Shown here: positions 6,878-60,142 of the stretch, in pieces | Position numbering within the stretch: position 1 is the first letter of the stretch | Layout: each line of letters begins with the position of its first letter | Assembly: GCA_945877765.1 (NCBI GenBank) | Contig: CAMDWQ010000010.1 | Span: 5,679-69,678, forward strand | Reading direction: 5' to 3' | Source of the DNA: Candidatus Omnitrophota bacterium | Lineage (GTDB): Bacteria > Omnitrophota > Gorgyraeia > 2-02-FULL-51-18 | DNA length: 64,000 nucleotides | Notes under the pieces: model-generated | Databases searched by the model: none | The model's input: only the letters and a program-made list of their open reading frames with translations | What the model was told of the DNA's origin: nothing | Position numbers and translations under genes: made by a program

Positions 6878-6942
6878 GTCATCCCCGAAGTGTTTGATCG
6901 GGGATCGTAATTAAGCTTGATTCCCGCTTTCGCGGGAATGAC
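6878..6942. repeat. REP family A doublet: GTCATCCCCGAagtgtttgaTCGGGGATC followed by the short variant GATTCCCGCtttcGCGGGAATGAC
   Basis: Two 8-bp-stem hairpins in the infA-rpmJ spacer. The same palindromic unit recurs at 7 other loci in the window. Confidence 0.8.
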
Positions 6943-10181: not shown

Positions 10182-10202
10182 GAAACTATATCGTGTCATG
10201 TG

Positions 10203-10260
10203 TCATCCCCGAGATCTTTAATCGGGGATCAAGTATGATTCCCGCTTTTGCGGGAATGAC
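10203..10260. repeat. REP family A doublet (GTCATCCCCGAgatctttaaTCGGGGATCA plus TGATTCCCGCttttGCGGGAATGAC)
   Basis: Palindromic units immediately after the rplQ stop. Confidence 0.8.
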
Positions 10261-14344: not shown

Positions 14345-14379
14345 ATTTACTAGACTGATCTCGACAATTAAATAACAAA

Positions 14380-14520
14380 GATGACGGTGAGCCCCTAACC
14401 GGGCCTTAATAGGGAAGGCTGTGAAAATCAGCCGCGGTCCCGCCGCTGTAACCTCTATAGTTTTACTTTCGTTGAGAATGCCACTGTGAGAGTTTTCATG
14501 GGAAGGCCAAACGAAAGAAG
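14380..14520 (+). ncRNA. Cobalamin (AdoCbl) riboswitch
   Basis: AATAGGGAAGGCTGTGAAAATCAGCC...GGTCCCGCCGCTGTAACC plus a B12 box GAGAATGCCACTG...GGGAAGGCC, in the leader of a TonB-dependent receptor gene. Confidence 0.7.
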
Positions 14521-14582
14521 AGGGAGTCAGAAAACCTGCCATCATCTTTTCAAGATCAACCTTTCTTTACGAGGCATAAAGA

Positions 14583-16772
14583 ATGAAAAAATCCCTATTG
14601 GTTTCCTATTCCTGCACGTTCCTACTTCTTTTTTCTACTGCAAGCCAAGTATTGGCTGATGACCCAAAAAAAAGTAAACCAAATAACAATCAAACCCTAT
14701 TAACACTTCCTTTTGACGCCGCCGAGAAATTGATTGGGGCGACGTTTGATTTGGGAGGTATTTTTGTGGGAAGTAAGCGGTTGGCGAGTCCTTTTGGTGA
14801 GTTTGTATCGGACTCGGTGAGCTCCACGAGTGTGGTCACTCGAAAAGACATCGAGCGCTCCGGCTCAAGAAATGTTCCGGAGGCTTTGAACGAAATACCC
14901 GGAGTAGCTTTGACGGATTTGGTTGGTAACGGCGAAGAGCCGACGGTTGATTTTCGCGGCTTCAATGAGGGCGGGGATGTGGTCTATCTTTTAGAAGGCG
15001 TGCGCCTGAACGAACCCAAATCCAACAACATGAATTTCCCTCTCATTCCCACCAGCCTCATCGAGCGGATCGAAATTAGCCGCGGGAGTTCGTCGTTTCT
15101 TTATGGGGAGGGGGCCGTCGGCGGGACGGTGAATTTTGCGGGCCGGGCGCCTAAAAAAGACGGCTTTTTTGGCGAGGCCACAAGTCTTGTGGGAAGTTTC
15201 GGCCAGTGGGGTGAGAGTTTAGAAACAGGTTTTAGAAAAGAAAGCGTTTCTCTGTATCTAACCGGTGATGTTTATCACACGCGGGGTTTTCGTCAAAATA
15301 CCTCCGTCGAAAAAGAAAGTTTCTATACCAAAGGGTCGTGGGAAGTCTCCGAGAAAATCGGGCTGGGTCTTACGTATCTGCATGGCAGGGCTCATTTGGA
15401 CCGCTCGGGAAGCATCCGCGAGACGTATTTGCGGCTCTACGGCCCCGAAGCCACGGAGCGGCCGCGCAACTTTTCCGAACTTCAGTCGGACCTTGGCATT
15501 CTGGATTTCCGGCTGATGCCTCTAGAGGAAGTGGCGCTGACCGGGAATGTTTTTTTAAGAGACACAGCGGAGTTGTCGGTGGCCAATTTTGCCACTTTTG
15601 AAAGAGCTGACAATGAACTGGATCTGAATACGAGCAGTTGGGGCACTACTTTCCAGGCCGAGCATTCGAAGGAAATCCCCTGGAAATTAAAAGAGGATTT
15701 TCTTGTAGGGATGGATTATACCCATCACGATATTGATGAAGAAGATTTTAACCGCTCCAAATCGACTTTGCAGCGCCTGGCGCGCACGGTGGATTCGGAT
15801 TCAACGAAAGATGCTACGGGGATTTTTTCAAAGTTGGCCGTATCTTGGAATGAACGTGCGGGCGCTTATTACGGCGCACGGTACGACTGGATTGGGTTTC
15901 GAAATAACGATAGAATCAACCTTCAGAATAATGAACCTACCGATATTTCAAAACTAAGCCAGTCGGCCGGTGCTTCCTATCAGATTTTCGAGCCCTTGGC
16001 TGCTTCCGTCACGTACAGCCATTCGTTTAAAGCGCCAGCACTTAGCGATCTTTACGCGAATCCACTTTTTGGCGGAAATCCCGCTTTGAGGCCGGAGGAA
16101 TCTTCGGATTACGAAGCGGGACTCCGCTGGAAGCAGGGCGGAGTGATGCTTAAAAATACCTGGTTTTTAATCCGCCGGACCAATGAAATTGGTTTTGATC
16201 CAGGATTGACGGATGCCGAGCATCTTTTTGGCCGTAATAATAATTTTGGAAAGACCGAGCGTGTCGGTGTCGAGAATTTTGCGGAATGGAAACCCGTATC
16301 TTCTGCGAGGCTACGTATTTCTCATACGTACACGGAAGCGGTTTTTAAATCCAACCTAACCCCGGATCCATTTGCGACAGACCCTTTTGAAAACCAGATC
16401 AGCGGCGACCATATTCCGATGGTTCCGCGTAACCGTTTTACTGCGGATATCTGGGTAGAGCCAGTCAAAAATCTAGAATTGGATTTGGGCATGGTTTCCG
16501 TAGCCAAGCAGGTCTTGACGAACGATTTAAACAACGACCGCAACGGCCGCCGGCTCCCGGCGTATTTGGTTTTTAATTTTAGGACGTTTTATACATGTGG
16601 GCAATGGCGCTTTTCTTTTGAAGTCGATAATTTACTCGATGAGCGCTACGAGAGCGGCGGTAGTCTGGGGTTGGCGCCTTCTAGTTTTAATTCGGATCAC
16701 ACCGTAGAAGACAATTTTTTTGTGCCGGCGCCTGGGCGAAGCTATGCAGTGACGGTTAGCTATTCGTGGTAA
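14583..16772 (+). CDS. TonB-dependent outer-membrane receptor (BtuB-like, given the riboswitch)
   Basis: 729 aa; signal peptide, plug region and C-terminal aromatic residue (ends YSW). Confidence 0.85.
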   Translation: MKKSLLVSYSCTFLLLFSTASQVLADDPKKSKPNNNQTLLTLPFDAAEKLIGATFDLGGIFVGSKRLASPFGEFVSDSVSSTSVVTRKDIERSGSRNVPEALNEIPGVALTDLVGNGEEPTVDFRGFNEGGDVVYLLEGVRLNEPKSNNMNFPLIPTSLIERIEISRGSSSFLYGEGAVGGTVNFAGRAPKKDGFFGEATSLVGSFGQWGESLETGFRKESVSLYLTGDVYHTRGFRQNTSVEKESFYTKGSWEVSEKIGLGLTYLHGRAHLDRSGSIRETYLRLYGPEATERPRNFSELQSDLGILDFRLMPLEEVALTGNVFLRDTAELSVANFATFERADNELDLNTSSWGTTFQAEHSKEIPWKLKEDFLVGMDYTHHDIDEEDFNRSKSTLQRLARTVDSDSTKDATGIFSKLAVSWNERAGAYYGARYDWIGFRNNDRINLQNNEPTDISKLSQSAGASYQIFEPLAASVTYSHSFKAPALSDLYANPLFGGNPALRPEESSDYEAGLRWKQGGVMLKNTWFLIRRTNEIGFDPGLTDAEHLFGRNNNFGKTERVGVENFAEWKPVSSARLRISHTYTEAVFKSNLTPDPFATDPFENQISGDHIPMVPRNRFTADIWVEPVKNLELDLGMVSVAKQVLTNDLNNDRNGRRLPAYLVFNFRTFYTCGQWRFSFEVDNLLDERYESGGSLGLAPSSFNSDHTVEDNFFVPAPGRSYAVTVSYSW

Positions 16773-22896: not shown

Positions 22897-22966
22897 GTCA
22901 TTCCCGAAAGTTTTGATCGGGAATCAAACCTAGACGTGATCCCCGATTAAGGATTTCGGGGACGAC
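22897..22966. repeat. REP family A doublet (forward ATTCCCGA variant plus reverse ATCCCCGA unit)
   Basis: GTCATTCCCGAaagttttgaTCGGGAATCA ... TGATCCCCGAttaaggattTCGGGGACGAC. Confidence 0.8.
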
Positions 22967-26045: not shown

Positions 26046-26115
26046 GTTATCCCCGAAATTTTTTATCGGGGATCATGCTTAGGTTTGATTCCCGATTAAA
26101 GCATTCGGGAATGAC
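26046..26115. repeat. REP family A doublet between tpiA and secG
   Basis: TTATCCCCGAaattttttaTCGGGGATCA ... TGATTCCCGAttaaagcatTCGGGAATGAC. Confidence 0.8.
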
Positions 26116-26153: not shown

Positions 26154-26543
26154 ATGTATATTTTTCTGATGATTGTCCATGTGTTTGTGTGTTTTGTGCT
26201 TATCGCAGTCGTTTTGTTGCAGGCAGGACGCGGCGGCGGATTTTCCGAAATGATGGGCGGTGCTCAGCCGCAGAGTATTTTTGGAACGCAAACCAATATG
26301 TTTATGACGCGTGCCACTGAAGTGTGCGCGGTTCTTTTTATCGTGACGTCGCTTTCGCTTGGAATTTTGTCAACCCAACGTGGTAAATCGCTCATGGCAA
26401 AAGGAATGGACTTAGACATCCTAAAGAAAACAAGCGCTATAATGCCGGCCCAGATTCCCGCGGCACCTGTTGCGTCCGCTCCAGTTGCTGTGGCGGCGGT
26501 TGCGACCACTTCACCGGCAGCAGCGGATGCTCCTAAAAGCTAA
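26154..26543 (+). CDS. secG: Preprotein translocase subunit SecG
   Basis: 129 aa; two transmembrane segments with LLQAGRGGG; conserved gap-pgk-tpi-secG synteny; Ala/Pro-rich C-terminal tail. Confidence 0.8.
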   Translation: MYIFLMIVHVFVCFVLIAVVLLQAGRGGGFSEMMGGAQPQSIFGTQTNMFMTRATEVCAVLFIVTSLSLGILSTQRGKSLMAKGMDLDILKKTSAIMPAQIPAAPVASAPVAVAAVATTSPAAADAPKS

Positions 26544-28158
26544 AATTCGTCTGAAAAAAAATATTTTTGTATCCCCACCAACATTACTGGTGGGGATATT
26601 TTTTTTGACCGTCTCTCCCTGTCTGGCAGCCCCGGTGGAGGGGGACGCGTTTGTTACTTCTTCCATCAGCGAACCGTCAAACCTTATTCCTTTTTTGGCT
26701 TCCGACAGTGCCTCGCACGCGGTCACCGCGCTTATTTTTAATGGACTGGTCAAATACGATGAGAATTTAAAATTGATCGGAGACTTAGCCGAGCGGTGGG
26801 AAATCCAGGACGGCGGGCTGCGAATTCTATTTTATTTGCGTAAAAATGTGCGCTGGCAGGATGGTGAGCCGTTTACGGCTGAGGATGTGAAGTTTACTTA
26901 CCAGAAGCTGACAGATCCTGCCACACCAACTCCTTACGGCGGCGATTTTGAAAAAGTGAAGTCTTTGACGGTAGTAGACCCGTACACGATTGAAGTGATT
27001 TATAAAGAGACTTTTTCGCCGGGGCTTGCCAGCTGGTCGATGGGGATTGTGCCTAAGCATCTGTTGGAAAAAGAGAATCTACTCAAGACTGATTTTACAC
27101 GCCATCCGATAGGCACCGGACCTTATCGGTTAAAAAAATGGACAACGGGCCAGTCTTTGGAACTTTGGGCCAACGCCGATTATTTTGAGGGTAAACCGCC
27201 AATCAAACGCTATATCTATCGCATAATCCCTGATCAGACCACGAGCTTTTTGGAGCTGTCCGTGGGCAACATTGACATGGCGGCATTGACACCGCTTCAG
27301 CACCAAAAACAAACAGACACATTATTTTTCACAAAAAATTATCAGAAGTTTCGCTACCCTAGTTTTGGTTACTGTTACCTTGGCTATAATCTCAAACACC
27401 CATTTTTTTCTGATCAACGGGTGCGCAAGGCTCTGGGCTTAGCGGTCAATAAGAAGGAAATTATTGAAGCGTCCCTTTTGGGGCTTGGCAAAGTCTCGAC
27501 GGGTCCGTTTTTACCTGGGACTTGGGCATACAATCCCGATGTCCCTGAGGGCGTGTTTGATCCGGCGGCCGCGCGGACCCTCTTAAAAGAAGCGGGATTT
27601 ATCGCTGTCGGTCAGGACGGAATTCTTAGCCGAGACGGCAAAAAGTTTTCATTTACTGTTCTCACCAATCAAGGCAACGACCAGCGGAAAATGGCTTGCG
27701 AGATTATTCAAAAACGGCTCAGGGATGTGGGTGTCCAGATGGATATCAGGACCGTCGAGTGGGGGACTTTTTTAAAAGAGTTCATCGATAAGAGAAACTT
27801 TGATGCCGTGATGCTGGCGTGGCAGCTTTCGTATGACCCGGATATTTATGATATTTTTCATTCTTCCAAAACCAAACAGGGTGAGTTTAATTTTATCGGG
27901 TATAAAAACCAGGAAGTGGACGCGCTTCTGGATGAAGGCCGAAGGGAATTTGACGAAACGGTGCGCGCCAAGATTTATCATCGTATTCACCAAATCTTAA
28001 GTGATGACGAGCCTTATCTATTTCTTTATGTTCCTGAAGCGCTGCCTGTGGTGCACCGACGGTTTCAAGGGGTTCGGCAGGCGCCAAAAGGGGTTGGATT
28101 TAATTTCATTCATTGGTATGTGCCAAAGGATGAGCAAAAATATAAACTCAAAGCGTAA
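26527..28158 (+). CDS. ABC transporter substrate-binding protein, family 5 (OppA/DppA/NikA-like); start uncertain (track 26470; ATG 26527 preferred)
   Basis: About 543 aa; signal-peptide-like N-terminus; first gene of the permease-permease-ATPase-ATPase operon. Confidence 0.8.
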   Translation: MLLKAKIRLKKNIFVSPPTLLVGIFFLTVSPCLAAPVEGDAFVTSSISEPSNLIPFLASDSASHAVTALIFNGLVKYDENLKLIGDLAERWEIQDGGLRILFYLRKNVRWQDGEPFTAEDVKFTYQKLTDPATPTPYGGDFEKVKSLTVVDPYTIEVIYKETFSPGLASWSMGIVPKHLLEKENLLKTDFTRHPIGTGPYRLKKWTTGQSLELWANADYFEGKPPIKRYIYRIIPDQTTSFLELSVGNIDMAALTPLQHQKQTDTLFFTKNYQKFRYPSFGYCYLGYNLKHPFFSDQRVRKALGLAVNKKEIIEASLLGLGKVSTGPFLPGTWAYNPDVPEGVFDPAAARTLLKEAGFIAVGQDGILSRDGKKFSFTVLTNQGNDQRKMACEIIQKRLRDVGVQMDIRTVEWGTFLKEFIDKRNFDAVMLAWQLSYDPDIYDIFHSSKTKQGEFNFIGYKNQEVDALLDEGRREFDETVRAKIYHRIHQILSDDEPYLFLYVPEALPVVHRRFQGVRQAPKGVGFNFIHWYVPKDEQKYKLKA

Positions 28159-28300
28159 TTTCCTCCCCTTACGAAGGGGAGGTGCCGGAGGCGGAGGGGT
28201 TGTGGGGGTTTACGTATGCTGTTGACGTGTCAACCACCCCGTCGCCTTCGGCACCACCCCTCCTTCGAAAGGAGGGGAAAGAGTGCTCAATTTTCCCCTC
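28159..28300. repeat. Family B structured intergenic repeat, copy 1 (about 140 bp)
   Basis: About 92% identical to 35540-35700. Contains hairpins TCCCCTTACGAAGGGGAG and CCTCCTTCGAAAGGAGGG flanking a long imperfect stem GGTGCCGGAGGCGGAGGGGTTG...CAACCACCCCGTCGCCTTCGGCACC. Confidence 0.8.
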
Positions 28301-28313
28301 TATGGGATGAATA

Positions 28314-29294
28314 ATGACTAAATATTTTTTAAAAAAAACAGCAGGAACAGTACCACTTTTGATTGGGATCACCCTGATCACATTTTTGGTGATCCATCTG
28401 GCGCCGGGAAGCGCGGTGGATGCGAAGGCAAGTTTTAACCCGAAAATGACTGCTCAAGCCAAAGCCAAACTTGAAAGTCTTTATGGCCTTGACCGCCCGA
28501 TTCTTGTGCAATACGCCGACTGGATGGGGCGCTTGGTGCGGTGCGATTTTGGGACGTCATTTGTTGATGGGAAGCCCGTGACGGAGAAGATTTTACAAGC
28601 GGCTCCGGTCACGCTTGCGATTAACTTGGGTACCTTGCTGCTGATTCTTGTTCTTGGGATTCCGCTGGGCGTCTACGGCGCGGTTCGGGCGGGGACTCTT
28701 GGGGACAAGGTGCTAACGGTTGTCGTATTTGCTGGTTTTTCAGTGCCGACGTTTTGGCTGTCGTTGATTCTTATGTCCTTTTTTGGAGTGAGGCTTGGTT
28801 GGCTTCCAATTTCGGGGCTTCATTCGCTTTTTTATGACGAGATGGGGACGTGGCAGCAGTACTTGGATTTGGGGCGTCATTTGATCCTGCCTATTGGTGT
28901 AGCCGCTTTTACTTCTGTCGCGGGAATTTCGCGCTACGTGCGTAGCGGCATGATTCAGGTCCTAGAAAAGCCATATATCCGTACGGCGCGCGCGAAGGGG
29001 CTATCTCGAAATCGTGTGATTTATGGGCACGCCCTGCCCAATGTTTTTTTGCCGCTGATTACAATTTTAGGGCTTTCGATTCCGGGTCTTTTGGGGGGGA
29101 GCGTCATTTTTGAAACCATTTTTTCCGTGCCAGGAATGGGGCGTCTTTTTTTTGATTCTGTTTTTACGCGTGACTATCCGGTAATCATGGGGATTTTGAC
29201 TTTGGGCGCCTGCCTGACGCTTTTGGGAAATTTTCTGGCGGATATTGGCTATGCACTTGCGGACCCGCGGATCCGGGTGGGGGAGCATTCATGA
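28314..29294 (+). CDS. ABC transporter permease (OppB/DppB-like)
   Basis: 326 aa; 6 transmembrane segments; EAA-like region RTARAKGLS. Confidence 0.85.
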   Translation: MTKYFLKKTAGTVPLLIGITLITFLVIHLAPGSAVDAKASFNPKMTAQAKAKLESLYGLDRPILVQYADWMGRLVRCDFGTSFVDGKPVTEKILQAAPVTLAINLGTLLLILVLGIPLGVYGAVRAGTLGDKVLTVVVFAGFSVPTFWLSLILMSFFGVRLGWLPISGLHSLFYDEMGTWQQYLDLGRHLILPIGVAAFTSVAGISRYVRSGMIQVLEKPYIRTARAKGLSRNRVIYGHALPNVFLPLITILGLSIPGLLGGSVIFETIFSVPGMGRLFFDSVFTRDYPVIMGILTLGACLTLLGNFLADIGYALADPRIRVGEHS

Positions 29295-30076
29295 AGGCGG
29301 CGATTATTTGGTTGGGGGCGATTTTACTGGCGGCGGTGGCGGCGCCCTTTTTTTTAAGTAGCGCGTCGCAATCGATGAATCTTTTAAGCCCGCTAGAAGC
29401 CCCTTCATTGCATCACTGGATGGGGACGGATCCGCTCGGGCGCGATCTTTTTTTTAGAATTTTGTGCGGCGCTCAAGTTTCTGTCGGTGTCGGGTTTGCG
29501 GCGGTTTTAATTGCTACTGTCATGGGGATTTTGATCGGGACGGTGGCTGGTTATTTCGGCAGCTGGGTGGATCGGATTTTAATGTCATTGACGGATGCGA
29601 TGCTTTGCTTTCCTGTTTTTTTTCTGATTCTGGCGGTCATCGCAATTCTTGGGCCTGGAATGATTCCCATTGTGGTAATTATCGGCGCCACCGGATGGAT
29701 GGGCACGGCACGATTGATTCGGGCGGAGATTTTAACTTTAAAACACCGCGAATTTGTCCTGGCGGCGCGCGCCTTTGGTGCCTCTAACCGCTGGATTCTT
29801 ACCCGACACCTAATTCCTAACGCGCTGGGCCCGGTGATTGTTCATGCGATTCTTGGTGTTTCGGCAGCCATTCTAACGGAGACAGCTCTGAGTTTCCTGG
29901 GAATTGGCGTGCAGCCGCCAACGCCCAGCTGGGGAAATATTTTGATGGATGGCAAAGCGACTCTTGGCAGTGCGTGGTGGATGATGCTTTTTCCGGGGCT
30001 TGTGATTTTCTTAACCGTATTGTCGGTCAATGTGCTGGGTGAGAAAATTTCCCATCAAATGCGGGGGAGCCGGTAG
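29291..30076 (+). CDS. ABC transporter permease (OppC/DppC-like)
   Basis: 261 aa; overlaps the upstream gene by 4 nt. Confidence 0.85.
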   Translation: MKAAIIWLGAILLAAVAAPFFLSSASQSMNLLSPLEAPSLHHWMGTDPLGRDLFFRILCGAQVSVGVGFAAVLIATVMGILIGTVAGYFGSWVDRILMSLTDAMLCFPVFFLILAVIAILGPGMIPIVVIIGATGWMGTARLIRAEILTLKHREFVLAARAFGASNRWILTRHLIPNALGPVIVHAILGVSAAILTETALSFLGIGVQPPTPSWGNILMDGKATLGSAWWMMLFPGLVIFLTVLSVNVLGEKISHQMRGSR

Positions 30077-30975
30077 TGGAAGCAAAGCTGCCGATTCTTG
30101 AAGTTTTAAATTTAAGAGTTTCTTTTCAGGATCCCGTGAATCCTTCTCAAAAAATTGAAGCGGTCCGCGGTATCTCTTTTGAGGCGGCGGAGGGCTCTTT
30201 TACCGCCATCGTGGGAGAATCGGGGTCAGGGAAAAGTGTCACCAGTCTTGCTTTGACGCGTTTAACGCAAACAAAGGATGTGACCGGACAAGTTTTTTGG
30301 CGGGGGAGCCGCACCAAAAAGGATCTTTTGACTCTCAATGACAGTGAGCTTCTCGATGTTCGTGGAAAGGAAATCGCCTACGTATTTCAAGATCCCGCCT
30401 CATCTTTGAATCCTGTTTTGCGTGTGGGTCCTCAAATTGCTGAAGCCTATCGAGCCCATTTTGATGTCAGTCGTGACCATTCAAAAAATCGCGCACTGGA
30501 ATATCTGGAGGCTGTGCAGATGAAGGACGCTCTACGTGTCTATCAGAGCTATCCGCATGAGCTCTCCGGCGGTATGAGGCAGAGGGCGGCGATTGCCATG
30601 GCACTCATTGCCGAGCCGCGACTCTTGATTGCCGACGAGCCCACAACGGCTTTGGACGCCAACGTAGAAACAGAAATATTAAACCTTCTTTTGAAAATTA
30701 AGCGGGAAAGAAAACTAACCATTTTATTTATCACGCACAATATGGCTCACGCCTGTTCTTATTCGGATGTGATTTATGTGATGAATCAAGGAAAAATGAC
30801 TGAAAGACTCACGCCGAGTGCGGACGGTTTTCACCCGCGGACGGACTATGCCAAAAAACTATTTGCGGCGAGTTTTTGGAATGTGCCGCCAAAATCGATT
30901 CTTCCCTGTGTCAGTCCAAATGTCATTCCCGAAATCTTTAATCGGGAATCAAACCTTAAAACAAATCACCCATGA
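30076..30975 (+). CDS. ABC transporter ATP-binding protein (OppD/DppD-like); GTG start
   Basis: Walker A GESGSGKS, signature LSGGMRQR, Walker B LLIADEPT; C-terminus runs into a REP unit. Confidence 0.85.
   Translation: MEAKLPILEVLNLRVSFQDPVNPSQKIEAVRGISFEAAEGSFTAIVGESGSGKSVTSLALTRLTQTKDVTGQVFWRGSRTKKDLLTLNDSELLDVRGKEIAYVFQDPASSLNPVLRVGPQIAEAYRAHFDVSRDHSKNRALEYLEAVQMKDALRVYQSYPHELSGGMRQRAAIAMALIAEPRLLIADEPTTALDANVETEILNLLLKIKRERKLTILFITHNMAHACSYSDVIYVMNQGKMTERLTPSADGFHPRTDYAKKLFAASFWNVPPKSILPCVSPNVIPEIFNRESNLKTNHP
30922..30951. repeat. REP family A single unit (consensus form GTCATTCCCGAaatctttaaTCGGGAATCA)
   Basis: Lies inside the last codons of the ATPase gene. Confidence 0.75.
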
Positions 30976-31266
30976 GAACTAAAAGTTATTACGTGTATAT
31001 CATGGCAAGCGAATCTATGACATTGTACATAGGGGTGACATCCGATCTAATTAAGCGTATGCATGAACATAGTAATGGGTTGGTGCAAGGTTTCACAAAG
31101 AAGCATGAGGTAAAGAAGCTTTTATATTATGAAATATTTTAAGATCCTAGAAGTGCGATCCTAAGAGAAAAAAAGCTTAAGAGATGGAATAGGGGTTGGA
31201 AGTTGAGCCTTATTCAGAAAATAAATCCAATGATGAAAGATTTATATGAAGAAGCTATGGTTTGAT
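30972..31266 (+). pseudogene. Small GIY-YIG nuclease (COG2827-like) interrupted by an in-frame TAA at 31140-31142
   Basis: MRTKSYYVYIMASESMTLYIGVTSDLIKRMHEHSNGLVQGFTKKHEVKKLLYYEIF*DPRSAILREKKLKRWNRGWKLSLIQKINPMMKDLYEEAMV; both halves match the GIY-YIG family in one frame. Confidence 0.7.
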
Positions 31267-31426
31267 CCCCGATTAAAGATTTCGGGGATGACGGGGTGAA
31301 GGGTTCGGGGATGACACATTTAGAGTTTCGGGGATGACATCTTACTCCAACGTCATTCCCGAATGTACTTATCGGGAATCAAGCTTACGCAGCGTATGAT
31401 CCCCGATTAAAAATTTCGGGGATGAC
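31263..31426. repeat. REP family A cluster (3 full units plus 2 half-sites)
   Basis: Full units at 31263-31292, 31352-31381 and 31397-31426; TCGGGGATGAC half-sites at 31303-31316 and 31326-31340. Confidence 0.8.
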
Positions 31427-31437
31427 ATGTTGTTGTT

Positions 31438-32151
31438 TTGGGGATGATGGGGGTGTTTGTGTTACTTGAAGTCAAAAATTTAGCTAAGAGTTTTAAAAAA
31501 GGCGGCGTCAAAGCGCTTGAAGAGGCGTCGTTTTCTTTGGTTTCTGGCCGGACTCTGGGGATTATTGGTGCATCCGGGTCAGGAAAATCCACACTTTTAA
31601 AAATTATATTAAGGCTTGTGCCTGCCGACAGCGGCGAAATTTATTTTGAAGAAAAAAGAATTGATAACTTAAGCGAGAAAAAATTGAGAGATTTTCGCAA
31701 AAAAACGCAGATTATATTCCAAGATCCGTATCTATCGCTGGACCCGCGGATGAAAGTGGCTCAGCTTTTAAGAGAGCCTTTTATGATTTCTGGCGAGGAC
31801 AAAAAAACGCAGAGTGTGGATGAGAAAATTAGGGCGCTCTTGGATGCGGTGGGTTTGGCGGAGCGTTTTTTGGCCCGCTTTCCTCATGAATTGTCGGGGG
31901 GTGAATGCCAGAGGGTTGCCATCGCGCGGTCGATTAGTTTGGGGCCGAGGCTACTGCTTTGCGATGAGGCTGTTTCTTCACTGGATGCCGTGACAAAAAT
32001 TCAAATCTTAAATCTGCTTTTGACGCTGCAAAAGGAGCGTGCAATCAGCCTGCTGTTCGTCTCCCACGACGAGCGGGCGGTGCGCCATATGAGCGATGAA
32101 GTGCGGGTGATGAAGGATGGGATTCTTTCTTCGGCGATTTCCTTGAATTAG
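31438..32151 (+). CDS. ABC transporter ATP-binding protein (OppF/DppF-like); the true start is probably the GTG/ATG a few codons downstream
   Basis: Walker A GASGSGKST, signature LSGGECQR, Walker B LLLCDEA. Confidence 0.85.
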   Translation: MGMMGVFVLLEVKNLAKSFKKGGVKALEEASFSLVSGRTLGIIGASGSGKSTLLKIILRLVPADSGEIYFEEKRIDNLSEKKLRDFRKKTQIIFQDPYLSLDPRMKVAQLLREPFMISGEDKKTQSVDEKIRALLDAVGLAERFLARFPHELSGGECQRVAIARSISLGPRLLLCDEAVSSLDAVTKIQILNLLLTLQKERAISLLFVSHDERAVRHMSDEVRVMKDGILSSAISLN

Positions 32152-34272: not shown

Positions 34273-34385
34273 GTCATCCCCGAGATCATTAGTCGGGGAT
34301 CAAACCTGGGCATGATCCCCGATAAGAGATTTCGGGGATGACACTGTGTGATGTTTGATTCCCGATAAATACTTTCGGGAATGAC
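34273..34385. repeat. REP family A cluster (3 units)
   Basis: Units at 34273-34302 (forward), 34313-34342 (reverse) and 34356-34385 (reverse, ATTCCCGA variant). Confidence 0.8.
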
Positions 34386-35505: not shown

Positions 35506-35539
35506 TAAGGGGAAGTGTCGGGGGAGAAAGAGAACACAA

Positions 35540-35700
35540 TTTCCTCCCCTTACGAAGGGGAGGTGCCGCAGGCGGAGGGGTTGTAGGGGTTTACGCATGC
35601 TGTTTAATGTGTCAACCACCCCGTCGCCTTCGGCACCACCCCTCCTTCGAAAGGAGGGGAAAGGGCACTTGATTTTCTCCTCTTTTCAAAGGGAGGGGAA
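35540..35700. repeat. Family B structured intergenic repeat, copy 2
   Basis: Near-identical to 28159-28300; the track ORF 35597.. starts inside it, which is spurious. Confidence 0.8.
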
Positions 35701-38673: not shown

Positions 38674-38743
38674 GTCATCCCCGAAATTATTTATCGGGGA
38701 TCATACCTTAGTTTGATTCCCGACTAGAGATTTCGGGAATGAC
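38674..38743. repeat. REP family A doublet upstream of the giant gene
   Basis: GTCATCCCCGAaattatttaTCGGGGATCA ... TGATTCCCGActagagattTCGGGAATGAC. Confidence 0.8.
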
Positions 38744-38961: not shown

Positions 38962-41900
38962 ATGCGCCGCTCGCCTTATTTAAAAATTATTTCGTTAGCT
39001 CTGATCATTAGCTTTTCCTTCTCCAACCTCCTCTATGCCGCCGACCCACGGGATCTCTTAAACGCCGCCAAAGCAGGCTTTGCCCTAGAAGACCAACGGC
39101 GTACCGGCGGGGAAGCGCCCCTAAATAATCAATCGCAAGGCTATGCCCAAGGATTGGTTGATCAGAAAAACAACCTAGCAGACCTAGAGCAATTAAACTT
39201 TTCTTTAACGACACAAAACGGAGATATTCTTAAGTATGCAGGCGATAAGCTAGCCCAGATCCAGCGGCCCGATGGAACGATTCTTCAAAATATTGTTTTA
39301 GCCGCGGACGGCAAAATCCAGAATGCGGATTTAAAACTCTTTGACGGTTCGATTCAGGTTTTTCAAAATGGCCAAGTCATAGGCTATGAGACTCCCGATG
39401 GAACCCAAGTCTTTTATGCCAACAGCCAGATACAAAAAACCATTTCTAAGAGTGGTGTTGAAACCCTCTACGCCTACACCAAAGACGCCAATGGGAAGGT
39501 CCTTGAGACTATCCTTGAGAACTCTCAAGCTAAAACCATCTATGATGCCCAAGGCAAATTAAAGGAAGTGTATCAGAAAGGACTATCTCAGCGGATGGTC
39601 TATCAGGCAGGAATTCTTCAAAGCATCACTCTGCAAGATGGCTCTCAAGCCCTTTTCCAAGCACAGACCATCAATAGCCAAGTCAAAGTTACGTTTAAGT
39701 CATATGTGGATGCGAATGGCAACACGTATGTGAATGATATGCAGTATCTTCTGAAAGATGGCTCTTCGCTAAAAAATATTATCTGGGGTAGTGATGGAAA
39801 AGTGGTTAATGCCTTACTCGAAAGCATCGACGGCAGCACCTACACTTTTACTAACAAGGTAATTACCGCCATTAGGCTTCCCAGCAATTGGGTACTCTCT
39901 TCCATCACCTGGGATACTCAAGACAAATTAAAAGACGGGATTCTTACGGATTTGGCTAATAACCAGTGGACCTATCAAGCGGGGGCACTGGTATCAATCA
40001 AGCTTCTGGACGGATCTATTCTATCGAGCATCACCTGGGATGCCCAAAATAAGATCAAAACTGCTAATTTAATAGACGCGCAAAAAAAGGAATACACTTT
40101 TGCCAATAATCAGCTCTCACAGCCTCTCAATGCGATCGCCTTTCAGCTTGATACCCAATACGGCCTTGTTGCCGGCAATAGCACCTACCAGTTCAACTGG
40201 GCGGGCAAGAATGAAAAATGGTTTAAGGCCAACAATAATACTTGGTATTTTATTCTCCCTGATGGCAAGGTGTATCTTTGGAATTCCGTTGCGGGTAAGA
40301 ACCTCACCACCTCCACGCTTGTAGTGACGCTAAACAGCAGTTATTGGGAAGATCCGGCATTTCTCTGTGATGCCTCCGATAGGGCAATAGTTCTCCAGCT
40401 TGATACTCAATATAGCCTTGTTCCCGGAAGCAGCACCTACCAATTCAACTGGGCCGGTCAGAATGAAAAGTGGTTTAAGGCCAACAACAATACCTGGTAC
40501 TATATTCTTCCCACAGGTCAATTGTATCTTTGGGATGCCAAGGGTGGTAAGAATCTCACCACCTCGACACTGGCAGCCACCCTCAACAGCCATTTTTGGG
40601 AAGACCCCACAAAGGTCCATCTTGCTTTTGAGAGAGCTGCTCTAGAAAGCACCGCGCTAAATCTAGATCGCCAGTACGCTCTTATTCCCAGTAGTAGTAA
40701 TTATTTCTTAAATTGGGCCGGTCAACAGGAAAAATGGTTTAAGAGTAGTAGCGGTACTGCCCAGTATTTTATACTCTCCGACGGAAGCTTGTATCTATGG
40801 AATCAACCCGCCGGAAAAAACCTCGCTACCTCCACAAAGCTTGCCACCCTCAGCGCTGATTACTGGGCAAATCCGACACTTCTTTGCCGCGCCTATGACC
40901 GCACAGTCGCAGTAGTCGTCACAAGCGCCTACACCGCAAAGATTATAGGTATCACCAAACCGCAAATTTCCGTGTCCAAAAGAACGCTCAGCGCGTCGAA
41001 ATTAAACATCGCTACTCTGAGCGCCGCTTTTTCGTTTAATTCAATTTTGTATAACACGGATGGAAGTTTTGCTCAGATCCTAGAAAAGGACAACACGACG
41101 CTTAATTTCAAAAATAATCTTTTGGTGGATGCCAAAGACGCGCAGGGAAAAATCATCCATTTTGATTTCACGGAGAGTGCTTTTGGAAATCTTTTAGGTT
41201 CAAGCCTCACGCAGAGCGGCGCGACATCCACCTATGATGAACAGGGAAATCTTTCCTCGGTAAAAGTGGGTGATACGACGATTCATTACAGCGCGGAAAA
41301 TAAAATCGAGTCCGTTGAGAAGGCGGACGGGACACGAGTGGAGAATATTATTTTTGATGCGCAAGGGAATATTCATGATGCCAAGATGACCGCGCCCGAT
41401 GGGACTCAGAGGACCTATCAGGCCAAAAAAATGATTCGTGAAAAAAAAGCTGATGGCACGGAGACTGATTTTGTGGACGGCAAGCCTTCGGTGACGCGGA
41501 TGGCGGACGGGCGGGTGTATGTCTATTCGCCGGCGGCTATTATCGGGAACTCTGCCGCTTTTAGGAGTATTTTGACGCAGTACGTCTCTGACGATGGAAG
41601 CGCTGTCTATGTCAATGACGGCATTCCCTTTAAAATCCAGACTAAGTCGGGCATGGTGTTGACAAATCTTGTGTTCGCGCTAGACGGTACTCTGACGGAT
41701 GCGATCGGATCTTTTACTGGGCCCGATGAAAATCAGATGACTTTAACCTATCAAGGTAAGGAAGTCAGGCAAATCATTTCCGCTGACGGCTCACGTCTAT
41801 TTTATGAAAATAATCGGCTTAAAAGCATGACCAAGCCCAATGGCGAGCAGATTATCTACGAATACACCCTCGATGGTGATGGGGAGATCTTGAAGATTAT

Positions 41901-44900
41901 TCTTAAAGACGCCTCTGGTACGCGGATTTATAATCCTGCTTTTGGAAAATCGTCCGAGCTTGTGGATGATGATTTGGTGAATCAGGACGGGGGAGAAGTC
42001 GATTTGGGACGCGCACTTCCTGCGATGGACCTATTGAGTTATTTCAAGGCGATCGAAAATACGACTACCCATTTGCCGGAAAGTCATGTGGGTATCAATG
42101 ACCCGCTGACTATTTCTTATACCTACGATGTGGCGCTGTATCTTTTGGCGGGAGCGTCTAGTGGCGGAGCTATTTTAGATTACATTATCAGTAACCCGGA
42201 AAAAATGATTAATACGACGTACGTCCCATCTGGCGGCATGTATAGCGATCTATCGACGTTGGGCGGTCAGGCGGGATTTGATCGAAACAGTGTGGTGGCG
42301 GGACCCAACGCGTGGATTGGTTTGGCTGCCTTGAAGCAATATCAAAAAACACAGGACGTAAAATATCTCAATTTTGCCAAAGCCCGAGCGGCCTTCATCA
42401 AGACGCTCTCGGATCCGTCAGGCGGTATCGTCATGGGGCCTGCAGGTCAATGGGGGATTCCCCCCTTCTCAGATCTTAAGTCCACGGAAAATAATCTATC
42501 CGCCCTCTATTTATACCAAGCGCTCTATACAGCGACCAATGACGCGCAATATCTTGCCGCGGCGGATAGTCTCTGGGCCTACGTAAAGACTCTTTATGAC
42601 CCGACCTTACACGCTTTTAGCCGCGGGGAACACAAGGGCGGCGGGGAGTGGCTTAAAGACAGTGCCAATGTTTTTGCCACGGACGTTTTGGCGTGGATGC
42701 CGTTTGAGCGCGTGGTGAATGATTCATTTTTTGGAGCGGATGTATTAGCCCGGCTAAAAGAAGTCGAGAATATGATTCGTGCCGCGGAGAAATACACGGG
42801 TCTTTTTACTCCGGTCGGTGATATTCAGGGTTTTAGTTATTCACCTGAGAGTAAAGATCGCAGTGTGATTTCCATTGAGTGGTCTGCTCAGATGGCCAAT
42901 CTTTATCTAAAAATTGCCCGCAGTTATAAGCAACTAGGAAATGACGTCAAATACCGTTTTTATGGATCTCGCTATCAAAAGTTGACCGCCTCGCTTGAGA
43001 CATTCGTCAAGACAGATGCTTCGGGTGTGAGTAGGGCTCCTTATGCTGTGTATCAAAATGGAAAAGGCGCTTACGGCGAGTTTACAGGGCATGGTTGGGC
43101 AACCCCTTCTCCCAAAAATCAAAATGGGGATGTTTTTAGCATGGCGAGTATCTATTATCAATTTTCACGTCAAAAAACAGATCCCTTGACCCTCGCCAAT
43201 GGATCCATCCTCTCGGCTAATTACATCAGCCAGGCCGATATTGATAAATATTCGGGCACGAGTTTACGCGATCAAAAATATTTTGACGCCGTGACCTCGC
43301 TTGAGCGCTATGAAAATGAAAAGTTTACGGCGGTATATTCCAAGGGCACTCTACGGAGTATCCAATATGAGAATATTTTGATCAACAATCCTGTGATTGA
43401 TGCCCGTGGATTTTTGGTGTCGGCAGAAATTCACACCCCTGATGGCCAGGTGTACACACTCAAAGATAGAAAATTGGCAACCCTCCTAAGGGCTAATGGG
43501 ACGCTTTTGGGTTATGAAGGAGACCTTATCGTGGATGTAACAGCGCCCAATGGAAAAAAAGTCCATTACACGTACACCAAAAATGCCCAAGGGTATGTGA
43601 CCGGCATCGCTGTGGAATACAACACCGGAAATGGGTGGATCGGTAAACCGATAGCGGAGTACTTATTTGATCCTGCCAACACCGAAGAAAAACCGATTCA
43701 TCAAACGAATTATCACTTGGCCGGTGATGACTACCGACAAGGTTCTGTTGGATCCTCAACAATTGGTAGCGGAGAATCGGAGTGGTTTGGTTCGGCGCAG
43801 GGACTGGACCCATTAGATCCCGAGGCCCGTCTTGTTTTTGATTCCAGCACGCTGGAGGGGACCGGTGACAGGAATTTTATAGATATTCAAGCGTATCGCT
43901 ACGATCTTGAATGGCCGGACAATATGCTTTCCGTCCAAAATGACAGTTTTGTATTTTTGAGAGCAAAAGAAACAAATTCTTCTACCGATGTTCATTTATC
44001 TCCCTATTGGATGACCGCGTCAGGATTATTGCTTTGGGTGCCGCTTCAAAATGGGTTTGATATCCCTCTCACTGATCAATATCAAAATCATCTGATTTCA
44101 ATCCAACCGGATGCGCTGGTTGTGGGTAGAAAAACATTTAACCTCCGCCTGGTTTTCGCGACGCCCATGCCCGCAGCCGCCCCATGGAAAATTTCTATCG
44201 CGGAGATGGATTATTTTCAATTAAAGCACATTGAGCCCGAGGATTACTTGCAGTACTTAAATCTTTCCCAAGAGCAGATGCTGGACGTTTCTAGGAAACC
44301 TTTAAAAAATGACGCCATGGATCTCCTTGAAGGGTCTCAGATCGTATCCAATTTTAATCATCAAAAGGAAGCCGAAAAGTTTTTGATCGCCATGGATCTT
44401 GACGCCAACTACAACTATTTATCCGGGACACGTGTGGATAAAAGTGTGGAGCGATATGCGGGCGGTAAGGTGGCAAGCCTGCTCAAGAATGGCTCTGAAG
44501 AGACCTACGAGTACGATGTCAACGGGCAGATCCAAAAAGTCATCAATAAAGACGCCGCGACTCAAGCGGTAAAGACAGTCACGTATTATCAATACGGACG
44601 CATCCGGCGGGTCGAGGACGCATCTGCGAAAGCGCTTTATACCTACAGCTACCAGACGGATTCTGCCAACAATGAAATTACACTCGTCAAAGATGAGGCA
44701 ACGGGGGAGCTAAAGCATTATCAAGGTAGTCGGCTCACGCAGATGGACAATGCCGACGGCACGCGAACGCTTTATTTTTATGAAAATACGGATGAGAGGA
44801 TTTCTCGCTCGCAGATCATGAGCGGTCAGAGTATCCTTGCAAAGTTTTCCTATTCCTATGAGGGCGCCAACACGCTTGTTACTGACGCTGATGGCGCCAC

Positions 44901-47900
44901 GAAAGTCTATGACGCCAACAACCTGCTTCTATCGATCATCACTCAAGGAGGTTTGGAATACCGGTTTAATCATTTAAAAGATGAGGCGGGCAATGCCGTG
45001 GAGGAGCAATTTTTGTATTCGGCCAAAACTGAGGATGGAATGACGCTCTTTTATAAAAATGACACCGTGGACAAAATTCAGCTAAAAGACGGGACCGTGA
45101 TTAATGTTTCCGAGGCGGATCAGGATTTGTATCAAAAAGTACTGATTAAGCAAGGCCTCGTGGACCAGGTGATTCATAAGACCGGGGAGCTTGCCGTTTA
45201 TATCCGTAATAATCGCGGGGATTTGAAAGAAGTCCGTGTCAGTAAAGCTGGGCAGGAGTACCGCTACACGCCCGATGGCCGTCTCGTAAGCCGCACAGAT
45301 GTTGGCGGCGTCACTTATCATTATGGATATATTTTGGATGGGGCTGGAAATATATCCAAGACGCGCGTGGTAAAGCGTACGGCAAAATTAATTGGGGGCG
45401 ATCTGCCAACAGTGGATCCGAATACCGGTGATTTTCTGAGACTGAGTGTTTTGTCTGCCGGGATTGTGGATGGGTGGAACGCAGGTCTATTTGCCAATGA
45501 CGAAGGTGTGGGGCATTTTGATACCAATTTCTGGCGGAATTCGTCGGATCAATGGACAGGCCGTGGGTATGACGTCGCCGTTGTCGATGCCAAAGGCAAA
45601 CTTATTAAGTCCGATCTTTTCGATATCTGGCAGCTTGGGGGCTCAGAAGCCGACCGGATGGCACAGTTTATTGAGCAAGTCCCTGTGGGAAATTATGTCC
45701 TCATGGCGGTCGGTGATGAAGGCGCTCTCAACATGACCGAGCGCGCTTACAAAGCCCTTGAGTCGCTGGGAAGCGCTCAGATACGAAATCTAAAGTTCAG
45801 GGGATCGTGGGGTCTTATTGGTAGAAAAGGTGCCGCTATTGGCACAGCCATCGAAGGTCTCCGAGATAGCCAAAAAGGCTACGTCTCTTTGCAAAATTAT
45901 GATACCGAGTATAGCTATTTTGATAAAAAGGGTGTTCCGATACCCTACGACCAATTCACCGCCGTTATTTCTCAAAATTGGAACAGTAGCTACCAGAGTT
46001 ATGTGGGGGATGCGGGGGAAATTCTTAAGACATCGGTCTATAGTGATGAATATGCTATCGCCTATCACAAAAATTATAATGAGCTCTATCCTGACTCCGG
46101 TTTTATTCAACTTTGGAATGACCGTTACCTTAATCAATTTACAGTCAATGAGTATGCCCAGGGAATCATAGATAAGGTTTCAACTACGGCTACCGCCAAA
46201 TATGTCTATTACGATAGCCGCTACCCGTTTAATTATGTCCACCCGCTTTTTGCAGTCGCTCTAAAAAATATTCTGGCGGCCAATGGCTTTCGGGTGATTG
46301 ATGCCAACCAGCTTGCGGAAGTCATGAAATTAGAAGGTTCTCACGCGGTGATTGTCTCGGCGCACGATGTGATGCCGGATACCATCTATGACCCCAATTC
46401 TATTTTTTCTATTTCTTATCGAAAGCTTTCGCGTACTTTTATGGAGAATGGCGGCACGCTCGTGTGGATGGGGGATCTGCCTTTTTATTACACGGGACAC
46501 GCGGACGGCAGTAAGACCATTGTCGGTGAGATCGGAGCGAAGACAGTTTTGGGGGTGATGCCTCTGGCGCGCGGCCTTCGTGCTCCGGTGAGTAGGACCT
46601 ATGTGCAAACTTTTGATGAATGGACGTTTATTAGCGGATGGATTCACGGAAATGGCGCGACGATTCAAAACGGGACTCTCCGACTGACTTCCCAATTGCC
46701 ATCAATAGTAGGCTCGGCAAGCGACCAAAACTTCAAGCCATCAACCGGGCTTTTGCGGTATACGGTTGATTTTAAAAATAATACGCTCAACTCAGGCTTT
46801 GAAACTTATCTAGAATTTCAAAATTTTACCCCTTATCAGACTCTGGGGATTCGCCAGGAAAACGGTGTGTTTAAATTTATAGGAAAGACTCCAGTGACCG
46901 GCGGATCGTCAGTGATTACCAATTTGGGCCAAGCTGCTTATGTTGCCGGCGTGGAATACACAGTGATTTTTGAAACCGAAAACAATGTCCTTAAAGTATT
47001 TTTATATCAAAAAAATCAGCCACAGCCCGAGGTGCCTACATTTTCAATCGCTAATGTGGACCCAAGCGTTGGGGCGAGTATTGGATTTAATATTCAGCAG
47101 GGTGAGGCGTTGGTCACAAGTCTTAAAAGAGATGAGAGGGAATACGAGATTATTTCTACGCAAGCGCCAAGCATTACTCCCGATTTTAGTTTGAAGGGCG
47201 GCGAGGCGGCGTTGGATACCTCCTTGCTTTATTTCGATACCAATGTCAATTTCCGGACGGTGCGTTGGGACAAGATTCAGGAATCGATTGGCTATTCGCT
47301 TGATAGCGATACGGCCGTGGTGTCCGATTACGATAAAAATGGTGATCTTATTTCCATTGCCAAGGCGGATCGCACGGTGACCACGTATGAAAACCAAAAA
47401 GTGCAGTTGGTGACGGACATCAACGGGTATGTTCTTGTGGAGTACGCTTACGATGCACAGGGTGCTTTGACTTCCATTACCAATGTCGGCCAAAGAAGAG
47501 AGCTCGCCGATCACATTGAGGACGCCAAAGACCGGGCCAATTTTGAGAAGCTATTTCTTTTTGAAGATGTTGCCATTGAGCATAATCTTACCGCTGGAGA
47601 GCCCATTGCTAAAAGTGCTCGCATCAGGTCGTTGGCGCACAGCGCCAATGTTCTCGACGGCGGACCTGAACCAGGAAGGTCATCGATGGGCATTGTTGCC
47701 GATGAGCTCATCAGTGAGCACGCAGAAAAATATCGCCAAGAGAATCCAAAGACGCTCGAGGGGGAAGTAGGAACAGACCCTTTCTGGATACAGGTTGCCG
47801 ATGGGTACTTGGCATACTCCAGCGCGAGACTGGAAGCGCTAAAAGTTTTACGTAGTACTCAAGATATCAAAGCCAAGAGCAGGGACGCCAAGAAAGAAAA

Positions 47901-55440: not shown

Positions 55441-55701
55441 ATGACGAGGTCTTTTATTTTTATCACCGAAGAAGGGTTTACCTATCAACCCAAGTCAGTT
55501 TCACAGATGCCAGATGTTGATAATTTTCAAGTTCTTGGGTTTTCTCAGGGCCAGACAGAGGGAAAAGCGTTCAAGAATTTTTTATGTGAGAATGAATGGC
55601 TTGGTATAATGACATTTAGAAAAGTGAGCTGTTACGAATTAAAAGATAGGACCTGCAAAGAATTTTTAATTCCTAATTCTAGGGTCAAAAAATCCCCGTA
55701 G
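55441..55701 (+). CDS. Hypothetical small protein (86 aa from ATG 55441)
   Basis: ORF only; its C-terminus runs into a 65-bp repeat; no recognisable family. Confidence 0.3.
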   Translation: MTRSFIFITEEGFTYQPKSVSQMPDVDNFQVLGFSQGQTEGKAFKNFLCENEWLGIMTFRKVSCYELKDRTCKEFLIPNSRVKKSP

Positions 55702-55750
55702 AAAGAAACTTGATTATTTTTAGCCCAATTTAGCGATACCCACCGAGCTT
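55686..55750 (+). repeat. 65-bp direct repeat, copy 1 (GTCAAAAAATCCCCGTAGAAAGAAACTTGATTATTTTTAGCCCAATTTAGCGATACCC)
   Basis: About 93% identical to 58703-58768 in the same orientation. Confidence 0.75.
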
Positions 55751-58702: not shown

Positions 58703-58768
58703 TTAACGGCGTCAAAAAATCCTCGTAGACAGAAATCTGATTATTTTTAGCCCAATTTAGCGATACCC
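58703..58768 (+). repeat. 65-bp direct repeat, copy 2
   Basis: Matches 55686-55750; followed directly by the transposase remnant. Confidence 0.75.
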
Positions 58769-58774
58769 GCTTAG

Positions 58775-58900
58775 GAGTCTGGAGTCTGGGGACACGTACC
58801 TAATTCACCCTAACTTACTTTGGTTTTGGCCCAGGTTTGATTTTCCTCAATAAACTCGTCAGAGTCCAGAGGTCCGACTGACCAGGTATTGTTGTAGTGC
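58775..58900 (-). mobile_element. Decayed remnant of a second REP-associated tyrosine transposase (RAYT) element (left inverted repeat plus the 3' end of the transposase gene, with an internal deletion)
   Basis: GAGTCTGGGGACACGTACCTAATTCACCCTAACTTACTTTGGTTTTGGCCCAGGTTT...CTCAATAAACTCGTCAGAG matches 60140-60260. Confidence 0.7.
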
Positions 58901-60108: not shown

Positions 60109-60142
60109 GGAAGAATTGTCACACTCCGATAGTGCCCGAGTC

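Follow-up and report, generated by a model that had tools for sequence, protein, structure and literature searches.

We analysed a window of 64,000 nucleotides (64 kb) from contig CAMDWQ010000010.1 of a Candidatus Omnitrophota bacterium, in which a short open reading frame (ORF) for a GIY-YIG nuclease interrupts the operon of an ATP-binding cassette (ABC) transporter. This ORF is very probably a member of the Ssn family of single-stranded DNA (ssDNA) nucleases within the usual unit of that family, SRM(+)-ssn-SRM(-), where the gene stands between two inverted Ssn-related motifs (SRM). The Ssn family was defined recently (Chenal et al., Nat Commun 2025; PMC11893778). The Ssn/SRM system is therefore known, and what is new here is a variant of the repeat that escapes the published motif pattern and a null allele of the nuclease that is still segregating.

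The nuclease gene and its flanking hairpins

The N. meningitidis member of the family, SsnA, is a single-domain GIY-YIG protein of 94 aa (CDD cd10448) that binds the NTS repeat CGTCATTCCCGCGMAVGCGGGAATCYRG solely as ssDNA and cleaves one strand only, a few nucleotides upstream of the NTS (PMC11893778). The substitutions Y6A, Y17A and E64A abolish cutting and keep binding; within the NTS, the three nucleotides before the palindrome are most important for cutting and the C after it for binding (PMC11893778). In Neisseria, SsnA lowers transformation by NTS-bearing DNA (PMC11893778). Homologues from other phyla are flanked by SRM, at least one in 71% of cases and on both sides in 42%, and cleavage of the protein's own repeat has been shown for four homologues (PMC11893778). 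The authors call the NTS-ssnA-NTS layout insertion sequence (IS)-like and compare it with the REP-associated tyrosine transposase (RAYT) and its repetitive extragenic palindromic (REP) sequences (PMC11893778).

The locus in the window resembles this system in several respects. Its full-length protein is a single GIY-YIG domain in the size range of about 94-97 aa; it has the same Tyr, Tyr and Glu and lacks any additional DNA-binding domain. The gene lies between oriented hairpins, with GTCAT outward and a C directly after the stem, and the same repeat is dispersed in many copies through intergenic DNA. The features of the element are as follows.

30922-30958, + strand: left SRM hairpin, GTCATTCCCGA-N9-TCGGGAATC with AAACCTTA flank; left inverted arm of the ssn element
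30972-31265, + strand: ssn gene, 97-codon single-domain GIY-YIG nuclease, interrupted here (Pfam PF01541, intact allele P0001, AlphaFold2 model)
31140-31142, + strand: internal TAA stop, codon 57 (window aligned with L002, L003, L005 and L006)
31256-31292, - strand: right SRM hairpin, inverted; the ssn TGA stop lies within its GGTTTGAT flank
31303-31342, - strand: two half-units, GTCATCCCCGAA only, with no predicted structure
31352-31380 (+) and 31398-31426 (-): 75-bp convergent SRM doublet
31436-31448, - strand: degenerate half-unit TTTTGGGGATGAT; possible ATG starts of the following ATPase gene at 31444 and 31447

The frame 30972-31265 translates as MRTKSYYVYIMASESMTLYIGVTSDLIKRMHEHSNGLVQGFTKKHEVKKLLYYEIF, one internal stop, then DPRSAILREKKLKRWNRGWKLSLIQKINPMMKDLYEEAMV and the terminal stop. 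With the internal stop masked, the protein matches the Pfam GIY-YIG family PF01541 over residues 6-76 (53.4 bits, E 3e-14), and frame and domain together bear out the original prediction of a stand-alone GIY-YIG gene of about 97 aa with an in-frame TAA at 31140. The intact allele P0001 is 98% identical to the window protein. Its AlphaFold2 (AF2) model is one compact GIY-YIG-fold domain (predicted local distance difference test 89.7, predicted TM-score 0.80) with strands at 6-12, 18-23 and 49-56 and helices at 26-34, 41-44, 59-71, 74-84 and 91-95. The top fold matches of the model in the PDB are UPF0213 BH0048, Slx1 and the UvrC N-terminal domain; searched by sequence, the PDB yields marginal UPF0213 matches (E about 1e-3) and no Ssn structure. 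UPF0213/YhbQ (PDB 1zg2, 1ywl) and Slx1, the best PDB matches by sequence and fold, share the GIY-YIG core fold with the window protein but are without its C-terminal W-x-R-x-W-K...N-P...D-L-Y helices, and no association with repeats has been reported for them.

Homologues of the intact protein number 223, mostly of 94-100 aa, and Y9, Y19, R29, E66 and K67 are invariant among them; for Y9, Y19 and E66 this holds across 45 homologues. P0001 carries all three of these catalytic residues, and in the window allele E66 falls 3' of the TAA. Counted on P0054, the two conserved Tyr and the Glu of the 94-aa homologues stand at 6, 17 and 64, the positions at which mutation of SsnA abolishes cutting.

The two arms of the element, 30922-30958 and 31256-31292, are 37 nt each and 92% complementary, and the ORF lies exactly between them. 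The earlier description as a REP-associated nuclease holds, but it missed this exact placement. The SRM(+)-ssn-SRM(-) unit so delimited spans 371 bp (30922-31292), with outer ends GTCAT and ATGAC and inner flanks ATCAAACCTTA and GGTTTGAT; its + unit ends 21 nt ahead of the ssn ATG and its - unit overlaps the ssn stop. Searching for the unit GTYATYCCCGA-N9-TCGGGRATC (29 nt, at most 1 mismatch), we found 15 copies in the window and 0 in 100 shuffles. All but one of the 15 are intergenic, the exception being 30922-30950. As a putative ssDNA target, the local repeat reads GTCATCCCCGAAATCTTTAATCGGGGATCAAACC. Folded as ssDNA, each unit gives a stem of 8 bp closed by a loop of 9 nt (-6.9 to -8.0 kcal/mol, z -2.8 to -3.8; the left unit -6.9 kcal/mol), and the second stem position is compensatory, being T:A in 6 and C:G in 8 of the 14 exact units with no mismatch.

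Downstream of ssn, the cluster contains three full hairpin units (31264-31292, 31352-31380, 31398-31426), two clean half-sites (31305-31315, 31328-31338) and a degenerate one (31438-31448). What had been described as a cluster of five REP units thus holds five copies of TTCGGGGATGAC but not five full palindromes. Together with the right arm of the preceding unit, the half-units make a 3-copy array with a period of 23 (31280-31342). Such half-unit arrays consist of GTCAT plus the left stem arm only, and tandem half-repeat arrays have no mention in the Ssn paper (PMC11893778). An unrelated metagenome contig, L182, has five copies of CTCGTCATTCCCGAAGTCTCACCGT on its reverse strand, with a period of 25, which lie about 60-190 nt 3' of its ssn and beside a full unit.

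We surveyed the family at 80 genomic loci of homologues 47-62% identical to the window protein, scoring 88 ORFs of which seven are the window locus itself. The hosts belong to Alpha-, Beta-, Gamma- and Deltaproteobacteria, Patescibacteria, Planctomycetes, Cyanobacteria, Nitrospirae, Omnitrophota, Ignavibacteria and Dehalococcoidia. When the 120 nt upstream of each ORF were matched against the reverse-complemented 120 nt that follow it, a flanking inverted match of at least 12 was present in 68/88 ORFs and of at least 15 in 54/88; random positions of the same geometry gave a mean of 7.6 and a 99th percentile of 13. The arms of the homologues are almost always GTCAT-stem-loop-stem-ATCCA hairpins, and their usual geometry is that of the window, the + unit lying 3-20 nt ahead of the start codon and the - unit following the stop at 0-10 nt. 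The published SRM pattern, HGTCWYN(0-2)YYVSBRHN(0-5)WNVSBRGN(0-2)RNCYNB, occurs on both flanks of 27/83 homologue ORFs and on one flank of 25/83, and the strict Neisseria NTS on both flanks of 5/83. Homologues with the exact Neisseria NTS motif on their flanks are likewise 47-62% identical to the window protein. Adjacent units in the homologue genomes are most often convergent doublets (18, against 10 and 2 for the other arrangements). The exact variant unit is present in at least 120 metagenome contigs, and an ssn lies near it in just 3 of 120: L090/L174, L182 and L129, the last disrupted and found as a split match.

The local repeat departs from that of the characterized Ssn system in its stem, which is shorter at 8 bp and ends with CCCGA instead of CCCGCG, in its A/T-rich loop of 9 nt, and in having ATCA in place of ATCC after the stem. 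The local units break the SRM pattern at B (the A in CCCGAA), at the loop length and at Y (ATCA). They retain GTCAT and the C that follows the stem, and it is these positions that are critical for cleavage and binding (PMC11893778). Since the published pattern misses this variant, pattern-based surveys undercount Ssn/SRM pairs.

Several points nevertheless weigh against the Ssn assignment and the history built on it. The published SRM pattern has 0 matches in the window, and NCBIfam has no model for the protein. Placement in the family would follow from homologues that carry the published motif and not from a direct comparison with the experimentally tested Ssn of N. meningitidis, NMV_0044, and recognition of the variant repeat by the window protein is putative. 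The ssn gene is single-copy in the 64-kb window, with no paralogue there, but the window is only part of the genome, and further intact ssn copies may exist. A second in-frame stop, the TGA in L090 described below, may be a sequencing error, since its contig carries the label cov_1.

The insertion site and the nonsense allele

The operon is of the peptide-type ABC class, and about 555 bp are inserted between its two ATPase genes, D and F. Its genes are listed below.

26470-28158: family 5 solute-binding protein (Pfam SBP_bac_5)
28314-29294 and 29291-30076: two permeases (Pfam BPD_transp_1)
30076-30975: ATPase D, whole ORF (Pfam ABC_tran)
30076-30903, + strand: part of ATPase D homologous to relatives, codons 1-276 (Pfam ABC_tran and orthologue alignment)
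30904-30975, + strand: ATPase D tail of 23 codons from inserted DNA, junction plus first SRM unit (C-terminal alignment with L088, L089 and L090)
31438-32151: ATPase F, whole ORF (Pfam ABC_tran)
31459-32151, + strand: ATPase F from its homologous N-terminus, MLLEVKNL, at GTG 31459 (Pfam ABC_tran; comparison with L088 and L089)

ATPase D has 299 aa in the window and 270-277 aa in relatives, and homology ends at codon 276 (30903). The D proteins of relatives end in ...KTILEI or ...KSYLGA, 2 residues past the equivalent of ...KSIL. The mechanical ORF of ATPase F begins at 31438, ahead of its homologous start at 31459. Because the homology of D ends at 30903 and that of F begins at 31459, the insert measures about 555 bp, roughly 30904-31458, and this alignment with relatives confirms that the operon is split between its ATPase genes. 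The tail codons of D (30904-30972) come from the insert, and the D frame traverses the first repeat unit. A REP unit ahead of the nuclease gene, as originally noted, is thus present at 30922-30950 but lies within the ATPase D frame and not between the genes. The TGA of the extended D gene overlaps the ssn ATG as ATGA (30972-30975). In this respect the window gene differs from the characterized Ssn system, being inside an ABC operon with its start overlapping an extended ATPase stop, and also in its nonsense allele. Translation of ssn in this lineage may be coupled to that of D. Upstream of the ssn ATG there is no Shine-Dalgarno-like sequence. Scanning the insert for promoters and terminators gave nothing above chance, and against Rfam the insert matches no family, introns included.

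The comparison of the operon in related genomes shows the insert absent from three relatives (L088, L089 and the ERZ27296333 contig) and present in L090. The three share the gene order permease, D, F, nucleotidyl transferase, ThiG and Iso_dh, and in all of them D and F abut, with a TGATG overlap in L088, a 3-nt gap in L089 and a 2-nt gap in ERZ27296333. L088 is also without repeat units between thiG and the Iso_dh gene. In L090, a groundwater metagenome contig whose ATPase D is 76% identical to that of the window, the D|F site is filled: D ends in ...KSILEI with TGATG, followed by three variant-type units, ssn and further units. The L090 ssn (677-967) is 72% identical to the window ssn.

Between the window and L090, the Nei-Gojobori method gives pN 0.138, pS 0.737 and dN/dS ~0.05 for ssn, and pN 0.162, pS 0.677 and dN/dS ~0.10 for ATPase D. 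Synonymous sites are saturated, and the constraint on ssn extends to both sides of the stop. The filled site in L090 and the low dN/dS together argue that ssn was there before the lineages split and has been selected almost throughout. The mobile insertion proposed from the sequence therefore stands as an insert relative to three syntenic relatives in which D and F abut, but it is not recent. The L090 ssn carries an in-frame stop of its own at codon 74 (TGA), beyond which the frame is conserved.

The TAA of the window arises by one C-to-A change at 31141 relative to the TCA (Ser57) of sister strains; position 57 is variable across the family. The same A is present in ERZ27280191, ERZ27280287, ERZ27280310, ERZ27280245 and GCA_947444795.1 as well as in the window, and a 56-aa truncated product is recorded from six contigs of different samples, GCA_947444795.1 among them. 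Two other samples encode the intact 97-aa P0001 at the same place, with TCA. Besides the stop change, three more single-nucleotide polymorphisms lie within ssn (4 differences in 294 bp), in agreement with the 1.1-2.3% by which the intact strains differ from the window over 3-8.5 kb. The TAA allele occurs on two downstream backgrounds, that of the window and that of L006. Among the 47 long ORFs of the window, 25 end in TAA, 13 in TGA and 9 in TAG, so that TAA is the ordinary stop that the earlier reading took it to be, and not a recoded codon. The same TAA in independent contigs on two backgrounds, together with its ordinary use as a stop, leads us to reject both sequencing error and recoding. 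The TAA is a genuine strain polymorphism and a loss-of-function allele; of the two options first offered, pseudogene or sequencing error, the former holds as a real null allele, with TAA in seven independently assembled contigs, and the latter falls away.

Past the stop, the frame still encodes A62, I63, R65, E66, K67, K70, W72, R74, W76, K77, N85, D90 and L91. As all downstream invariant residues are thus preserved, the mutation appears to be young. In the AF2 model, the stop at codon 57 directly follows strand 3, removing the helix with R65 and E66 and all C-terminal helices. Since the lost helix holds Arg65-Glu66 (REK), whose glutamate is the equivalent of the E64 needed in SsnA, no active nuclease is expected, and the truncated product is predicted to be inactive. 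In-frame stops occur in 2/83 homologue copies, both at loci with extra ssn copies, indicating that decay of ssn copies is not unusual. These loci, L009 (9395-9688, 9998-10291) and L026 (9998-10288, 15355-15645, 16287-16580), hold two and three ssn copies over a few kb, with one stop-bearing copy each.

Dispersed doublets and the origin of the element

The other units of the window form convergent doublets, four of them exactly 70 bp, and lie at the following positions.

6878-6942: hybrid doublet of a local variant unit and a canonical NTS-like unit (GTCATTCCCGCGAAAGCGGGAATCAA, - strand; 6917-6942)
10202-10260: hybrid doublet of a local variant unit and the canonical NTS-like unit GTCATTCCCGCGAAAGCGGGAATCAA (10236-10260)
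22897-22966: 70-bp SRM doublet, intergenic
26046-26115: 70-bp SRM doublet, intergenic between tpi and secG
34273-34385: 70-bp SRM doublet (34273-34342) plus a third unit, between thiG and the Iso_dh gene
38674-38743: 70-bp SRM doublet, junction ...ATCATACCTTA / GTTTGAT...

The doublet junction, for example ...GGGGATCATACCTTA / GTTTGATTCCCGA..., equals both ends of the 371-bp gene element joined, and by sequence the 70-bp doublets resemble an ssn element that has lost its interior. The pairing of canonical with variant units in the hybrid doublets indicates that two repeat subtypes coexist in one genome.

These repeats recall the dRS3/NIME elements of Neisseria, in which ATTCCC-N8-GGGAAT-type palindromes bracket short intergenic spacers; the units at 6917-6942 and 10236-10260 are canonical in this sense, whereas the local units are mostly of the CCCGA-N9-TCGGG type, and the host is uncultured and unrelated to Neisseria. 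The layout is also like that of RAYTs and their REP doublet forming hairpins (REPIN), with a single gene between inverted REP hairpins, dispersed convergent doublets, long vertical residence under purifying selection and a repeat recognised as an ssDNA hairpin. Unlike RAYTs, which are related to IS200/IS605, the window protein is a GIY-YIG nuclease and not an HUH/Y1 transposase; no Y1 (HUH) transposase lies between the repeats, GIY-YIG being the sole Pfam match of the flanked ORF. Our first idea, an undescribed analogue of RAYT/REP, was dropped, the association of nuclease and repeat being already reported (PMC11893778).

We propose that the Ssn-type nuclease would bind the hairpin (NTS/SRM) as ssDNA and cut a few nucleotides upstream of the GTCAT flank. 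In an ancestor, an ssn unit with extra repeats would have inserted where two translationally coupled ATPase genes meet and afterwards been inherited vertically under purifying selection, with the same repeat presumably spreading to intergenic sites as 70-bp convergent doublets. In this strain, the change of Ser57 from TCA to TAA would disable the nuclease, sister strains keeping an intact gene. By analogy with SsnA, the intact protein may cleave the local repeat as ssDNA only and may have a role in the control of ssDNA uptake or recombination.

The local data also fit a bolder extension, beyond the claim of the 2025 paper, in which Ssn mobilises, or once mobilised, a class of GIY-YIG-driven transposons that act through ssDNA hairpins; we consider this speculative and on the whole unlikely. 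If it were true, the 371-bp SRM-ssn-SRM unit would act as the autonomous element, and the 70-bp doublets (junction ...ACCTTA / GTTTGAT...) would be non-autonomous forms like REPINs or miniature inverted-repeat transposable elements (MITE). The half-repeat arrays (31280-31342; L182) would be scars of cleavage and repair, and nonsense alleles would segregate as the nuclease became costly once the repeats had spread. The doublets and half-repeat arrays are suggestive of Ssn multiplying the repeats but do not settle it. We know of no transposition chemistry for Ssn.

More doubtful still is an active or recent selfish IS-like element, using the GIY-YIG protein as its transposase, that recently entered the operon and is now decaying. 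The unit has IS-like terminal inverted hairpins, a layout remarked on in the 2025 paper itself, the 70-bp doublets resemble internal-deletion derivatives of the MITE type, syntenic relatives have empty sites, and homologues elsewhere lie in unrelated contexts with up to 2-3 copies per locus. Recent arrival is hard to reconcile, however, with a filled D|F site in a lineage whose ATPase D is 76% and Ssn 72% identical, with saturated synonymous sites, and with a dN/dS of about 0.05 that places ssn under constraint like that of the neighbouring ATPase. Nor is there more than one ssn copy in 64 kb or a target-site duplication visible at the unit ends, and strand-transfer activity has been shown for no Ssn. 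The original prediction had also named a homing endonuclease, here one of the free-standing GIY-YIG kind (I-TevI or Seg type) targeting the ATPase junction. Its GIY-YIG domain, small size and position between conserved genes would fit, but the 97 aa consist wholly of nuclease domain and include neither a linker nor a DNA-binding domain, the gene stands in a chromosomal operon with no intron or intein found at the locus and no intron match in Rfam, and the closest relatives are the repeat-flanked family of 94-100 aa rather than phage Seg/Tev proteins. The characterized Ssn members, moreover, do not cut double-stranded DNA (PMC11893778), and we give this idea almost no credence.

Two further readings concern the stop codon. 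One might suppose, from its being a single in-frame stop followed by 40 perfectly conserved codons with all invariant residues, that the gene is intact in this strain and the TAA an assembly or sequencing error or subject to readthrough or recoding. The same A at 31141 in contigs of several samples with two downstream backgrounds, the use of TAA to end 25/47 long ORFs and the lack of any recoding signal in Rfam make this exceedingly improbable. Alternatively, the stop could be a switch from nuclease to binder, with the 56-residue N-terminal fragment kept as a non-cutting binder of the repeat. Catalytic mutants of SsnA still bind NTS ssDNA (PMC11893778), TAA is a common allele in the population sampled (on 7 contigs versus 2), and another lineage, L090, has an in-frame stop too. 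Yet the fragment ends after strand 3 without the C-terminal helices of the compact domain, which makes a stable fold unlikely according to the model, and stops at third and fourth positions in extra copies elsewhere resemble ordinary decay; we regard the switch as very unlikely.

On the Ssn reading, the best annotation is ssn pseudogene for the ORF, which sister strains keep intact, and SRM units for the repeats, in preference to homing endonuclease and generic REP. The co-occurrence of an intact and a nonsense allele within a single population offers a handle on the role of Ssn outside Neisseria, and the doublets and half-repeat arrays bear on how SRM repeats multiply. A further specificity for ssDNA-cutting tools may also come from the intact allele with its distinct target.

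Other features of the window

A second, unrelated repeat of about 146 bp is present at 28157-28301 and 35538-35683 (90-96% identical). One copy lies between the binding-protein and first permease genes and the other after the Iso_dh gene; the repeat contains GC-rich internal hairpins, CCTCCCCTTACGAAGGGGAGG and CCCTCCTTCGAAAGGAGGGG, and has no Rfam match. Directly 3' of a repeat doublet, an ORF of 4239 codons (38962-51681) has an internal repeat of 212 nt (40144-40355 and 40396-40607, 79% identical). The sole Rfam match over the whole window is a cobalamin riboswitch (RF00174, 105.9 bits) at 14368-14557, upstream of a 729-codon ORF (14583-16772). Near the 3' end of the window are two direct repeats of two copies each, one of 58 nt (55684-55741 and 58711-58768, 93%) and one of 66 nt (58782-58847 and 60138-60203, 97%).

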